Origin: an uncultured Chloroflexia bacterium | Lineage (GTDB): Bacteria; Chloroflexota; Anaerolineae; CG2-30-64-16 | Direction of reading: 5' to 3' | Assembly: GCA_963808455.1 (NCBI GenBank) | Contig: CAWEHT010000155.1 | Span: 1 to 57,521, forward strand | Length of the DNA stretch: 57,521 nt | Part shown: positions 52,313-57,521 of the stretch, piece after piece | Layout of the letters: each line of letters starts with the position of its first letter | Numbering within the stretch: position 1 is the stretch's first letter | Notes under the pieces: generated by a model | Seen by the model: the letters and a program-made list of their open reading frames with translations, nothing else | The model's database searches: none | Told to the model about the DNA's origin: nothing | Translations under genes and position numbers: made by a program

Positions 52313-53266
52313 TCAGGAGGAATGCGGCCGTACCGTGCCGCGCAGCGCCTGGAGGGTGACCAGCACCGTCCCCGCCAGGATAAGGCAGGCGGCGGCTGCC
52401 TGCGCCGGGCTCAGCCCCTGGCCATAAATCGCCGCGCCGACGCCCCACGAAACCACCGGAGCGAACGTCTCCACCAGCGAGGCATTGGCCACACTGGTAT
52501 GGGCCAGCCCGCGGTAGTAGAGCTGATAGCTGGCGACGGAGAGGGCGACCAGAACCAGCAGGGCGCCTAACGTGGCAGCCGAGGCCTGGCGCAAGTGGCT
52601 GCCCTCGAATAGCACCAGCGGGCAAAGCAGGAAGCCGGACAGCAGGTGCCGTCCGGCAGCCACGAGCCGGCCGTCAACCACCGGGCCGGCGGGCGCCTCG
52701 TGATCCATCAAGCTCTTGCTGATGACCGAGGCGGTGCCCCATCCCACGGAAGCCACCAGCATCAGCAAAATGCCCGCCGGCACGAGGCTCCCGTTGCCCG
52801 GTGTGACGCCGGCCATCATGTAGAGGCCTGCCACGGCGCAGGCCAGGCCCGCCACGTGGTAACCGGTCGGCCGCTCGTGCAGGAAGAGGGAGGCCAGGGC
52901 AATGGCCCAGACGGGATAGACATTGCCCACAAAATTGAGGACGGCTATGCTCACTGCCGAGCGCAAGGCATACACAAAGAGCAGATTGGGCAGCGCAAAC
53001 CCCAGGAGCGCCAGTGCCAGGAAGCCCACCGGCTGGCCGCGCAGCGCGGCCCAAAAGCGCCTTGGGCCGGCGAGCGCGGTCAGGATGGCGCCGGCGAGCA
53101 GCATGCGCAAAGTCACCAGCTCACCGGGCAGCAGTTGCTGCGCGGCAGCGGCGACGGCGAAGGGTATCACGCCCCAGAGAAACACGGCAGCCACGATGTT
53201 GCCGAACGCGGAAGCGGCGACCCGCCGCGGCTGCGATCCCAGGTCCACGGCCATACCCCCAAGCAT
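52313..53266 (-). CDS. DMT/EamA family transporter (start uncertain)
   Basis: Two EamA-like repeats, LFLHERP, Y.GL..TSVANAS, about 10 TMs. Confidence 0.85.
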   Translation of the reverse strand: MLGGMAVDLGSQPRRVAASAFGNIVAAVFLWGVIPFAVAAAAQQLLPGELVTLRMLLAGAILTALAGPRRFWAALRGQPVGFLALALLGFALPNLLFVYALRSAVSIAVLNFVGNVYPVWAIALASLFLHERPTGYHVAGLACAVAGLYMMAGVTPGNGSLVPAGILLMLVASVGWGTASVISKSLMDHEAPAGPVVDGRLVAAGRHLLSGFLLCPLVLFEGSHLRQASAATLGALLVLVALSVASYQLYYRGLAHTSVANASLVETFAPVVSWGVGAAIYGQGLSPAQAAAACLILAGTVLVTLQALRGTVRPHSS

Positions 53267-53426
53267 AGGTCCGGCGCGGGCCGAGGACAATGACGGATGT
53301 CAGGGGCGTGTCCCGGGTTCGGGGCAGGGCGCGCGCCGCGGCGAGCCTATCCGCGCATCCGGGGGTATCCGTGGCCGGCCCGGCCCCGGAACCGGCGCGC
53401 ACCCCGCGGCGAATGCCGGTTTCGCC

Positions 53427-56057
53427 GTGAGCGTAACAGGCTGGGGAAAAGGGGAAATTTAAGCCAACCCGCCAGATAGGGTACATAATATACCTTGGCA
53501 AAACCATCAACCGAGCGAGGTTGGCTGCGTGCAAGGTACCATAGGACTGGGGAAAGCTCAACTGCTGGCGGGAGCCGTGGGGCATGGGCTGGTGATCGTC
53601 AGCATTCTGGCCTTGGCCTGCCTGGGGCAGGTGGTCCCAGAGCAGGCCGGGTGGGTGCTGGGCGGTCCAGGTACTGCCATGGTGCAGCGGCGCAGGAGCT
53701 GTGCCAGGGTTAGCTGGGAGCCAGCGAGTGGCGGGCAGGCGGAGCTTTGGCTGCAACTGGCGCAGACCTGGCAGGTTGCGCTGCTGCGCAGCCTGCTGTT
53801 ATGGGGTTTATGGCACGGCAGCGGGCCGCTGGGGCCCGCCTGGCTGGCGCTATGGCCGTGGGCGCTGTGGTTGTGGCGCAGTTTGGGTCTGGCTTGGCCG
53901 GGGCTAGGCCGCCGCCCGAGCTGGTACCACGTGGAGCATTGGCTGGCGCAGGGGCAGCGCTGGCTGACTTTGGGTTATGGCGGGCTGGTCCTGGCGCTCT
54001 GGTTACGGGCAGGCTGGGGGGTGGCTAGCCCAGCCGGTCAGGGCGCAGGCAGCGGGCGGGCCCGGCTGCTGGGGAGCAGGCTGCCTGGTCTGCGGCGGCG
54101 CCGAGCCGCGGGTCACGGTCGAGCGGCAGGCGGATGGCAGCTATCAGGCCACGTTGTGCGGGCACTTCACGCTGCAAGTAGCCGGGGACAGCCTGTTTCG
54201 CAGGCGGCTGCTGTTGCTGTTCCTGGGCTTGCTGGAGCGGCCCGGACCGCCGCGTAAAGGGCGGCGCACCCGCGATGGGCGCACACCGTTTGTCACGGAG
54301 AGGCAACTGGCCGTCTGGTTTGGTATGCCGCAGCCGGTGGTCAGTCGCTGGTATCGTTACTGGCTGCACGCCGATTGGGCCAACTTGCTGAGCCTGCACA
54401 GCGCCGAAGTGCTGACCAGGGAGTGGGTCGCGCGCATTGTGGCGGTCTGTGCCACGTTTCCCTGGTGGGGACCCGCACAGGTGCAGGCCCACCTGCGCAG
54501 CCAAGGTCTGCCGGTGAGTCAAGCGCAAGTGGCCCAGGCGTGGGCCCAGAGCGGTTGGTCCCAGCTGCGCCAGACCTTGTTTGAGCGCTATGATCTGAGC
54601 GGCGCGGCCCTACAACTGCGGGATGGTTGGTTGGTGGGCCAACTGCTGGCCCAGGTGCAGGGACTGTTGGAACGCCTGGAGGGTGGGCTGGCTGTGACGC
54701 CGGAACAGCGCCTGACCGTGGCCGACTTACAGCAGCTGGCGGCGGTGGCCCCAGGGCTGGCCGCACCGCCCGTGCCCGCCCAGCCCTGGCTGCGGCGGGT
54801 CGAACAGGTCCTCCTGGGACCGTGGCCGGCGGCGGGCGCCCCTTGTGCCGACCCAGTCCACTGTCCGAACTGCGGCTCGCCGCAGGTCCAGCCTAAAGGG
54901 CACCGGCCGCGCCTCAAGAAGTTCTACGATGACCAGCACCAGGTCCAGCAAGTGGCAGTCTATCGCTATGTCTGCGCCAATCCGCAGTGCCCGACGCAGA
55001 GCTTCACGGCGCTGCCCGCCGGACTGCTGCCCTATTCGCCCTACCGCACGGAGGTCCACCTGCTGGCCCTGCAGATGTATGCCTGGGGCTACAGCACCTA
55101 TCGCCGCACCGGCACGGCCTTGGGCGTGGCCAGCCTGACCGCCTGGCGCTGGGTCAGCGCCTGGGGCTACGACCTGCTGCCGGTGGCGGCCCTGTTTGGC
55201 GTCCTGAAGTCCAGCGGCGTGGTCGGCGTCGATGAAAAGTACGTGCTGGTGCCCAAAAATGACAAACCGGCCGGTGCCATGCGCCGCTGGATGTATGTTT
55301 ATCTGGCGGTGGACGCCTGGACCTACGACCTGCTGCACATCGCCCTCTACCCCGACAACAGCGACGCCAGCGCCCAGGCCTTCCTGCTGGCCTTGCGGGC
55401 CAAGGGCTACCACCCCCAGGTGCTCGTCACCGACCTGCGCCAGGACTATGGCCCGCTGATCGCTCAGGTCTTCCCGCAGGCCGTGCATCACGAATGCATC
55501 TTCCACGCCTTACAAAATGCGCAGAAGCATATCAAGGACGCCTATGGTCATGGACTACCAGACGGCCCATCCCGAAGCCGTGCACCTCAAGGGCCTCATC
55601 TACGCCATCTTCGAAGTCCAGACCCCGGCCCAGGCCCAAGAGCGCTACGCCGCCGTGCTGGCACTCCAAGCAGCCTATGTCCAGGCGCAGCCGGCCGCGC
55701 AGACCATCTTTGACTTCCTGGAGCGGCACTGGCCCAAGCTGGTGAATGCCATCGGCAGCGATCTGATTCCCACCACGAACAACACCGTGGAACGGACCAT
55801 CGGCCGTTTTGACCAACACTACCAAAATTTCTGCGGTTTCGAGTCCCTGGCGGATGCGCAACGCTACCTGGCCGTCTTCGAGAAGGTCTATCGTTTCACG
55901 CCCTTCTCGCAGGATGCTCAGCCCGGCGTCCGCGGCAAGGCGCCCCTGCAACTGGCGGGCTACGACATCAGCCACTTGCCGATGGCGACCCTCTGCTCCG
56001 GCCGCAGCATCATCTGGCCCACGGAGAGCCCTCGTGTCCCCAGCCCGTGACGCTCTC
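53427..56057 (+). mobile_element. Large (~2.63 kb) insertion sequence, copy 1; DDE transposase of IS256/ISH6/IS6-like type, family unassigned
   Basis: TIRs GTGAGCGTAACAGGCTGGGGA (53427-53447) and GAGAGCGTCACGGGCTGGGGA (reverse complement of 56037-56057); sequence repeats from 56065. Confidence 0.85.
53529..56050 (+). CDS. ~840-aa DDE transposase with hydrophobic N-terminal extension (apparent frameshifts near 54030-54075 and 55550)
   Basis: GAGGT RBS plus GTG; HTH-like TERQLAVWFG.PQPVVSRW; zinc ribbon CPNC...C....C; VGVDEK, YLAVD, VTD, CIFH, TTNN.VER; the stop lies inside the right TIR. Confidence 0.8.
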
Positions 56058-56064
56058 GTCTTTA

Positions 56065-57521
56065 GTGAGCGTAACAGGCTGGGGAAAGGGAAAATTTCAA
56101 GCCAACCCGCCAGATAGGGTACATAATATACCTTGGCAAAACCATCAACCGAGCGAGGTTGGCTGCGTGCAAGGTACCATAGGACTGGGGAAAGCTCAAC
56201 TGCTGGCGGGAGCCGTGGGGCATGGGCTGGTGATCGTCAGCATTCTGGCCTTGGCCTGCCTGGGGCAGGTGGTCCCAGAGCAGGCCGGGTGGGTGCTGGG
56301 CGGTCCAGGTACTGCCATGGTGCAGCGGCGCAGGAGCTGTGCCAGGGTTAGCTGGGAGCCAGCGAGTGGCGGGCAGGCGGAGCTTTGGCTGCAACTGGCG
56401 CAGACCTGGCAGGTTGCGCTGCTGCGCAGCCTGCTGTTATGGGGTTTATGGCACGGCAGCGGGCCGCTGGGGCCCGCCTGGCTGGCGCTATGGCCGTGGG
56501 CGCTGTGGTTGTGGCGCAGTTTGGGTCTGGCTTGGCCGGGGCTAGGCCGCCGCCCGAGCTGGTACCACGTGGAGCATTGGCTGGCGCAAGGGCAGCGCTG
56601 GTTGACTTTGGGTTATGGCGGGCTGGTCCTGGCGCTGTGGTTACGGGCGGGCTGGGGGGTGGCTGTCCCAGCGGTCAGGGCGCATGCCGCGGCTATGGCC
56701 CCGTTGCTGGGGACAGGCTGCCTGGTCTGCGGCAGCACCGAGCCGCGGGTCACGGTCGAGCGGCAGGCGGATGGCAGCTATCAGGCCACGTTGTGCGGGC
56801 ACTTCACGCTGCAAGTAGCCGGGGACAGCCTGTTTCGCAGGCGGCTGCTGTTGCTGTTCCTGGGCCTGCTGGAGCGGCCCGGACCGCCGCGTAAAGGGCG
56901 GCGCACCCGCGATGGGCGCACACCGTTTGTCACGGAGAGGCAACTGGCCGTCTGGTTTGGTACGCCGCAGCCGGTGGTCAGTCGCTGGTATCGTTACTGG
57001 CTGCACGCCGATTGGGCCAACTTGCTGGCCTGCACAGCGCCGAAGTGCTGACCAGGGAGTGGGTCGCGCGCATTGTGGCGGTCTGTGCCACGTTTCCCTG
57101 GTGGGGACCCGCACAGGTGCAGGCCCACCTGCGCAGCCAAGGTCTGCCGGTGAGTCAAGCGCAAGTGGCCCAGGCGTGGGCCCAGAGCGGTTGGTCCCAG
57201 CTGCGCCAGACCTTGTTTGAGCGCTATGATCTGAGCGGCCCTGCCCTACAACTGCGGGATGGTTGGTTGGTGGGCCAACTGCTGGCCCAGGTGCAGGGAC
57301 TGTTGGAACGCCTGGAGGGTGGGCTGGCTGTGACGCCGGAACAGCGCCTGACCGTGGCCGACTTACAGCAGCTGGCGGCGGTGGCCCCAGGGCTGGCCGC
57401 ACCGCCCGTGCCCGCCCAGCCCTGGCTGCGGCGGGTCGAACAGGTCCTCCGGGGACGGTGGCCGGCGGCGGGCGCCCCTTGTGCCGACCCAGTCCACTGT
57501 CCGAACTGCGGCTCGCCGCAG
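56065..57521 (+). mobile_element. Second, slightly diverged copy of the same IS in head-to-tail orientation (runs off the window)
   Basis: Starts GTGAGCGTAACAGGCTGGGGA 7 bp after copy 1; nearly identical to 53427 onward. Confidence 0.88.
56167..57521 (+). CDS. Transposase of copy 2, partial (apparent 1-bp deletion near 57028)
   Basis: One open frame joins the hydrophobic N-terminus to CLVCGSTEPRVTVER...TERQLAVWFG. Confidence 0.75.

Follow-up and report, generated by a model that had tools for sequence, protein, structure and literature searches.

A large Chloroflexota insertion sequence outside the curated families, with a conserved, membrane-like N-terminal module in its DDE transposase

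Insertion sequences (ISs) of the IS256 family are about 1.2-1.5 kb long, encode a transposase of about 400 amino acids (aa) and make 8-9-bp target duplications, and IS6 transposases measure about 220-250 aa and have the second catalytic Asp close to the Glu. Classic IS66 members carry a tnpA-tnpB-tnpC operon, ISBst12-type elements being a subgroup with a single open reading frame (ORF), and IS30- and IS21-type elements form tandem dimers and target inverted repeats. To our knowledge, the literature regards bacterial transposases as soluble DNA enzymes; a full-text literature term search returned no use of membrane-bound, membrane-tethered or transmembrane transposase, and wider terms gave nothing relevant. 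Membrane anchoring is familiar from ToxR and CadC, which are one-component DNA-binding regulators. Here we analyse an IS at positions 53427..56057 (+ strand) of a 57,521-nt stretch of DNA (the window), which is contig C155 of a metagenome-assembled genome (MAG; 495 contigs, 81% complete). It is a real mobile element from a large IS family that is essentially restricted to Chloroflexota. The reading that we favour, and regard as probable, is an unclassified IS family whose DDE (Asp-Asp-Glu) transposase carries a conserved N-terminal module anchored in the membrane.

The full-length element (copy 1, 2,631 bp, with two frameshifts) is delimited by terminal inverted repeats (TIRs), a 100% self-match and related copies, and metagenome contigs with loose ends begin or end precisely at 56056/56057. 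Both 21-bp TIR arms reported in a first-pass annotation of this DNA were located: the left arm (53427..53447, +; GTGAGCGTAAC..GCTGGGGA) agrees at 18/21 positions with the reverse complement of the right arm (56037..56057, -), and copy 1 reads GTGAGCGTAACAGGCTGGGGA from 53427. A 7-bp spacer, GTCTTTA (56058..56064), separates copy 1 from a head-to-tail second copy (copy 2, 56065..57521, +), 98% identical to it, of which the first 1,457 bp are present before the contig end cuts off the rest. The single long gene first described within the TIRs does not hold for copy 1, where the reading is split over three frames (53529-~54075, ~54076-55548 and 55553-56050); one base is inserted near 54076 and another at 55550, and reading through both would give a product of about 839 aa. 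At the second frameshift (55549..55552, +), four bases including the extra A at 55550 replace one codon of the relatives. This A is missing from the copy on contig C38 and from one contig of soil run X1, marking it as a copy-specific lesion and not a programmed shift. Programmed frameshifting in copy 1, which we considered, was rejected on this ground and because relatives consist of one ORF. Copy 2, as had been claimed, joins the hydrophobic part and the first helix-turn-helix (HTH) region in one frame (56047-57051), and has its own 1-nt deletion at 57027/57028. Both window copies are defective, with one or two frameshifts apiece. Contig C54 holds an intact paralogue with 73% DNA identity, which comprises one 825-aa ORF from a GTG start to a stop codon in the right TIR and is likely to be this genome's active gene.

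A word-index search with the intact paralogue gave 1,602 matches among 8,000 scored candidates. Among the 120 matches listed, 98 cover at least 95% of the 825-aa query, at 59-74% identity and lengths of 809-854 aa; a start of homologues beyond the hydrophobic region, which the first-pass annotation had named as grounds for refuting its idea, is thereby not borne out. Searched exhaustively, the cluster representatives yielded 775 matches at E<=1e-3 and 190 at E<=1e-30. A genome-locus scan with one genome per species returned 78 loci, 71 of them labelled as Chloroflexota lineages (Anaerolineae, Chloroflexia with the cultured Oscillochloris and Chloroploca, Ardenticatenaceae, Thermoflexales, Dehalococcoidia and Ktedonobacterales) and the remaining seven binned outside Chloroflexota, mostly on short contigs; in an even phylum sample, at least 7 of 401 genomes matched at E<=1e-20. 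With its ends recurring in these loci and on other contigs of the source genome, the element is no chance feature. Family elements are 2.5-2.9 kb long with a single ORF for a protein of about 820-855 aa, and many lie alone on contigs of 2.6-3.5 kb. Their TIRs are 21-25 bp long with the tip G(T/A)GAGCGT(A/C)AC....TGGGGAC, the core G.GAGCGT..C....TGGGGA being kept in 13/13 aligned left ends. IS26-type elements are expected to be common in plasmid collections, whereas tblastn with the intact paralogue and a 983-aa distant relative against 72,556 plasmids gave no match.

The proposal of an unclassified IS group was borne out by a scan of the intact paralogue and 13 other members with the curated NCBIfam IS models, used as proxies for ISfinder families, none of which attains its cut-off. 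The best-scoring model for the paralogue, transpos_IS6 (NF033587), gives 56.1 bits against a cut-off of 125 over model positions 4-151 of 202, with relatives reaching 79 bits; transpos_IS66 (NF033517) gives 42.1 bits against 180 over positions 26-359 of 387 (28.7-55.6 bits in the other 13 members), transpos_ISL3 (NF033550) 42.1 bits against 180, and transpos_IS256 (NF033543) 27.5 bits against 150 (28.6 in the whole-genome search). The IS481 model matches the HTH only (25 bits against 224). Of other prokaryotic Mutator-like families (PMC3942029), the ISH6 model reaches 21-24 bits against 240 in two members, and the ISKra4 and ISLre2 models have no match at E<=0.01 in the 14 members.

It might still be that the element is already catalogued, for example as a divergent single-ORF IS66 member (ISBst12-like) or among ISNCY, and that only its N-terminal feature has gone unremarked. 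The likeness to IS66 is considerable. Coiled coil, Cys4 zinc ribbon, DDE core, a C..H motif past the second Asp and TNN..E follow one another as in IS66 transposases, one of which, from the same genome, shows the matching order of coiled coil, zinc finger and DDE, and the NCBIfam IS66 model has the fullest coverage of all, from the zinc ribbon to the Glu, but misses its cut-off by far. Pfam DDE_Tnp_IS66 scores 33.3 against a gathering threshold of 23.1 in the paralogue and lies above gathering in 12 of the 14 members, and DDE_Tnp_IS240 scores 29.0 against 27; these matches weigh against an unclassified family, as ISfinder curators might on their account place the element in an existing one. 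Two reports give GTAAGCG as the beginning of IS66 repeats, with 8-bp duplications (PMC11946415, PMC12888890), and the family tip GTGAGCGT lies one base from it; the tips found are GTGAGCG or GAGAGCG, with GTAAGCG itself in two loci only.

Set against this likeness, bona fide IS66 transposase genes in the same genome score 193-294 bits with the NCBIfam IS66 model, and the paralogue aligns to the same-genome IS66 transposase at a BLASTP E of 0.88, the family profile giving an hhalign probability of 15% with the catalytic residues still aligned. The zf-IS66, LZ_Tnp_IS66 and IS66 C-terminal domains have no match at E<=0.01 in the 14 members. The target duplication (see below) is 7 bp and not 8, the single ORF comes without tnpA or tnpB, and the protein has some 400 extra N-terminal residues that include the hydrophobic module. 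The IS6 and ISL3 models, moreover, score as high as IS66. Source names of relatives are 'transposase', 'transposase-like protein', 'Transposase IS66 family' and 'hypothetical protein' only. In a survey that set out five families of prokaryotic Mutator-like transposases, a term search returned no use of 'transmembrane' (PMC3942029). Taken together, we consider it unlikely that the element has been catalogued. The IS66 genes of this genome lie at C43:51-1190, C44:48-1187, C42:6-1058 and C229:32385-33287, several of them at contig ends.

IS256 and other Mutator-like elements share with the family the D..D..CxxH..E layout, an alpha-helical insertion domain and an HTH just before the core, and the first-pass annotation was right about that layout. 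The family element is about twice the size of an IS256 element, makes a 7-bp duplication and has 420 N-terminal residues with no IS256 counterpart. The IS6 model covers the HTH and ends halfway through the core, whereas the spacing of 119 residues between the second Asp and the Glu, which holds the insertion domain, is unlike the short IS6 spacing. On these comparisons of sequence and predicted fold we conclude that the core lies within the IS66/IS256/IS6/ISL3 neighbourhood of DDE enzymes and the element in none of these families as curated.

The order of domains was taken from an AlphaFold2 (AF2) model of the paralogue, built on a 57-sequence alignment with a mean predicted local distance difference test score (pLDDT) of 79. 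Helices at residues 4-30, 62-94, 101-124 and 127-152, with a disordered basic loop at 31-61, make up the N-terminal module and are followed by a disordered linker (155-174), a three-stranded sheet plus helix (179-218), and HTH helices (241-337), which match HTH_32 and the IS481 N-terminus below threshold. Residues 349-413 then form a coiled coil, 426-475 a Cys4 zinc ribbon and 488-537 a second HTH. The RNase-H fold (545-636) contains D549 and D616, and helices at 638-770 extend from the second Asp to past the Glu, with an all-alpha insertion domain ahead of that Glu, E735 in TNNxVE. D549, D616, C637xxH640 and E735 are invariant or nearly so across 57 diverse sequences. The top solved folds found by Foldseek are 6xg8, 6xgx and 6xgw, the IS256-family ISCth4 transposase, with a best E of 1.4e-8, 16-18% identity and a TM-score of 0.47-0.50 on the target.

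Mapped onto copy 1 (all on the + strand), the first frame (53529..54075) comprises the GTG start, the hydrophobic, Trp-rich N-terminal module with its four predicted helices, and the linker. The second frame (54076..55548) would encode the beta-hairpin/HTH, coiled coil, zinc ribbon, second HTH, both catalytic Asp and CxxH, and the third (55553..56050) the insertion domain, the catalytic Glu and the C-terminus, with the stop codon within the right TIR. Every peptide motif quoted in the first-pass annotation was found at its position: GLVIVSILALACLG (53586-53627), ALLRSLLLWGLW (53778-53813), AWLALWPWALWLW (53838-53876) and LTLGYGGLVLALWL (53964-54005) in the hydrophobic region; CPNC (54859-54879) and a second Cys pair (54967-54993) in a zinc ribbon spanning 54859-54993; and VDEK with the first catalytic Asp (55222-55242), VTD with the second (55423-55443), CIFH as the CxxH (55492-55512) and TNNTVER with the catalytic Glu (55775-55795). 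The further CxxC listed there is present at 54079-54099; the intact paralogue lacks it and family members vary there, and we rejected it as a functional site.

In five proteins, Trp makes up 9-11% and Leu 16-21% of the first 170 aa, whose share of Lys, of Asp and of Glu is 2.4% or less. Helix 1 has Kyte-Doolittle 19-mer maxima of 2.1-2.5 in all five, and on the octanol scale the most favourable segments of each protein fall within the first ~160 aa. A Kyte-Doolittle value of at least 1.6 is reached by an N-terminal segment in 27 of the 35 listed representatives of 560 aa or more, and one further representative has an internal segment only. Relatives down to 22-30% identity still bear transmembrane-like N-terminal segments; in low-G+C relatives of 930-990 aa, 22-24% identical to the paralogue, plain Ile/Leu/Phe stretches of transmembrane character replace the Trp-rich ones, indicating that hydrophobicity and layout are what is conserved, as expected of membrane segments and not of a passenger domain. 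The earlier suggestion of a fused passenger domain finds no support in the same distribution, the module being family-wide and present in these distant relatives. By eye, the low-G+C relatives of 930-990 aa (P0190, P0196, P0200 and P0208) seem to have two or three beta-hairpin/HTH repeats from the hydrophobic N-terminus to the zinc ribbon. Searches with the module itself were empty: Pfam returned no family for the hydrophobic ORF alone, the ESM Atlas no usable match for residues 1-235, and Foldseek against the PDB nothing meaningful for an AF2 model of those residues (best E 0.84).

From this composition and its conservation, we think it fairly probable that the module enters the cytoplasmic membrane and so tethers the enzyme, whose DNA-binding and catalytic parts would face the cytoplasm. 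Several observations weigh against membrane insertion. In the Trp-rich subfamily helix 1 alone passes the Kyte-Doolittle threshold, and the octanol scale is not specific, as it picks out buried strands in the soluble part too. Seven of the 35 listed distant representatives have no hydrophobic N-terminal segment, which could be due to truncated gene calls or to genuine loss. Helix 1 has basic residues on either side and an invariant Arg (Arg84) lies in helix 2, features that would fit more than one topology and number of spans. These charges, and the failure of helices 2-4 at the Kyte-Doolittle threshold, would suit a module that is translated but soluble or peripheral, a Trp/Arg-rich bundle for multimerisation, protein docking or nucleic-acid binding, the more so as AF2 packs helices 2-4 confidently and repeats the layout when given residues 1-235 alone (pLDDT 80-90). 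Such a bundle would, however, have to tolerate a near lack of Asp, Glu and Lys over about 170 residues, unusual in a soluble domain, together with a helix 1 that is strongly hydrophobic in all five proteins, and the low-G+C relatives keep hydrophobicity rather than a particular surface. We rate the soluble bundle as improbable, and retain membrane anchoring as the better account of the module.

Whichever its location, the hydrophobic N-terminus is coding and under purifying selection, as five independent lines of evidence show, the coverage of homologues among them. In its frame G+C peaks at the third codon position and is least at the second, as in the downstream coding part. An ATG or GTG stands at the homologous start in 13 of 15 genomic loci, with a conserved Shine-Dalgarno-like GAGG upstream; full-length homologues align from residue 1, and their indels preserve the frame. 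The ratio of non-synonymous to synonymous substitution rates (dN/dS; Nei-Gojobori, nine pairs) is 0.21-0.41 for codons 1-170 and 0.20-0.35 for the Trp-rich core, compared with 0.15-0.34 over residues 171-420 and, in the catalytic part, 0.07-0.20. G40, R84, S85, P107, W108, W111 and P121 are invariant across 17 N-termini that are 30-63% identical. That the stretch is untranslated, with the true start downstream and the frame held open by high G+C, would fit a window of 65-69% G+C in which long spurious ORFs are common in several frames, and the GTG start codon, but is very hard to reconcile with dN/dS well under 1, the conserved start and GAGG, the frame-keeping indels and the 170-260 open hydrophobic codons that low-G+C relatives hold upstream of the conserved part.

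Target duplication was assessed at 29 loci in which both ends are present and the flanks measure 17 nt or more. Exact 7-bp direct repeats bound the element in eight of them, an exact 8-bp repeat in one and a 6/7 match in one; an exact 7-bp repeat is expected by chance at about 1 in 16,384 per locus. The family generates 7-bp target duplications. The heptamer GTCTTTA between the window copies is found again right after the IS right end on contig C38 and, with other DNA further upstream, right before an IS left end in contigs of three soil runs, and soil-metagenome contigs show differing flanks at both element ends. The recurring heptamer and varied flanks show that the element has recently moved in these populations. 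The left flank of copy 1, TTTCGCC, has no partner on its right.

Junctions of a right end, a short spacer and a left end occur in the window (56034-56090) and in five or six of the 78 related loci, the spacer most often having the 7-bp length of the target duplication: 7 bp at L010:2631-2683, L023:702-754 and L034:5982-6034, 6 bp at L036:40-91, 8 bp at L045:5979-6032, and 7 bp in a weaker case with a poor left arm (L009). They are either tandems from insertion of the element beside its own ends or circle junctions threaded into assemblies. In IS30/IS21 tandem dimers, head-to-tail copies likewise have abutted ends a few bases apart; those transposases are unrelated, and the family spacer equals the target duplication. 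For the window, the unpaired TTTCGCC, a spacer that is another copy's duplication and a contig that ends within copy 2 make both the tandem and the circle possible.

A circle junction would suit the copy-out/paste-in chemistry of IS256-type elements, for which right-end/spacer/left-end junctions are of the kind expected. In such a scheme the DDE core would, by homology, cut and join the TIR ends, and transposition would proceed through a right-end/7-bp/left-end junction. We put this chemistry forward tentatively, at slightly less than even confidence; it is the weaker part of our reading, based only on fold similarity and the junctions, and none of the contigs of four soil runs (X1-X4) bridges the 56057/56065 junction, although contigs cannot show absence.

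Two loci bear on how closely the enzyme is tied to its own element. Non-coding 228-bp derivatives with both TIRs lie right after a full IS at L034:6011-6238 and L045:6009-6236. The L045 derivative is bounded by an exact 7-bp duplication of its own, TAGAAGC, which lies one base out of register with the duplication of the full IS, whereas at L034 one outer 7-bp duplication, AGTTCTG, flanks the full IS and the derivative together. A TIR-bearing derivative with its own duplication indicates that the enzyme can act in trans, which argues against a membrane tether that enforces cis action; stated in that form, the proposal is too strong.

Other copies in the source genome include a right end that opens contig C246, a right-hand fragment on C38 and a short remnant on C145. 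At C38:1-1514 another kind of IS, roughly 1.5 kb long and matching Pfam DDE_Tnp_1 and DDE_5, breaks the element copy at its position ~2099; this interrupting IS occurs in 12 places on 11 contigs of the genome, five of them full length, at 98.6-100% identity. Between the two window copies, 13 of 28 differences crowd into one 50-nt patch (54027..54076 in copy 1, which has the extra base near 54076, versus 56665-56713 in copy 2). The patch encodes the disordered linker from the hydrophobic module to the first DNA-binding domain, and its cause is possibly gene conversion from a third copy or relaxed constraint. Outside copy 1, 137 bp separate its left end from the start of an EamA-family transporter gene (52313-53290, -; Pfam 114 bits), whose transcription leads away from the element.

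The 5' leader of copy 1 contains a palindrome-like sequence, GGTACATAATATACC (53480..53494, +), whose GGTA.A is invariant in 13/13 left ends. This GGTACA..TACC element, about 55 nt inside the left end, is retained in all 13 even behind a 75-nt insertion. It may be a -10 region, an operator or a binding site; as a consensus sigma-70 promoter scan of 53300-56250 returned no site, it stays a candidate promoter or operator only.

Ends and chemistry would thus be those of an ordinary IS, and what appears new, as judged from sequence, is the unclassified transposase clade and a conserved membrane-like module without precedent. From its N-terminus, the proposed protein would comprise a hydrophobic module about 155 aa long, a disordered linker, a beta-hairpin with HTH, a coiled coil, a Cys4 ribbon, a second HTH and the DDE core, the module having neither acidic residues nor lysine and consisting of one classical transmembrane helix, a basic loop and three Trp/Leu-rich helices. 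Its working would resemble that of ToxR/CadC-type regulators by analogy only, a cytoplasmic DNA-binding part being tied to the membrane by a transmembrane segment of the same polypeptide; in those regulators the segment follows the DNA-binding domain, whereas here the protein is a transposase with an N-terminal module, and no homology is expected. Candidate rationales for anchoring are that it keeps the enzyme near its transcribed and translated gene, so that nearby ends are favoured, that it limits the active pool, or that the enzyme is released at the disordered linker.

Since curated models currently give these elements no family name, a family profile would improve the annotation of this recurrent repeat of Chloroflexota MAGs. 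Beyond the Chloroflexota family, a deep, undescribed DDE lineage that also takes in its relatives of 580-990 aa, low-G+C ones included, may consist of integral membrane enzymes, a suggestion that we hold with a little more doubt than belief. If it is true, the cytoplasmic membrane would be where transposition in this lineage takes place and perhaps also where it is regulated, which could happen through the site of co-translational insertion or through proteolytic release at the disordered linker, and the right-end/7-bp/left-end junctions would be the footprint of a reactive intermediate. A multi-helix membrane module under purifying selection in very distant relatives would add a new way to place or restrain transposition.

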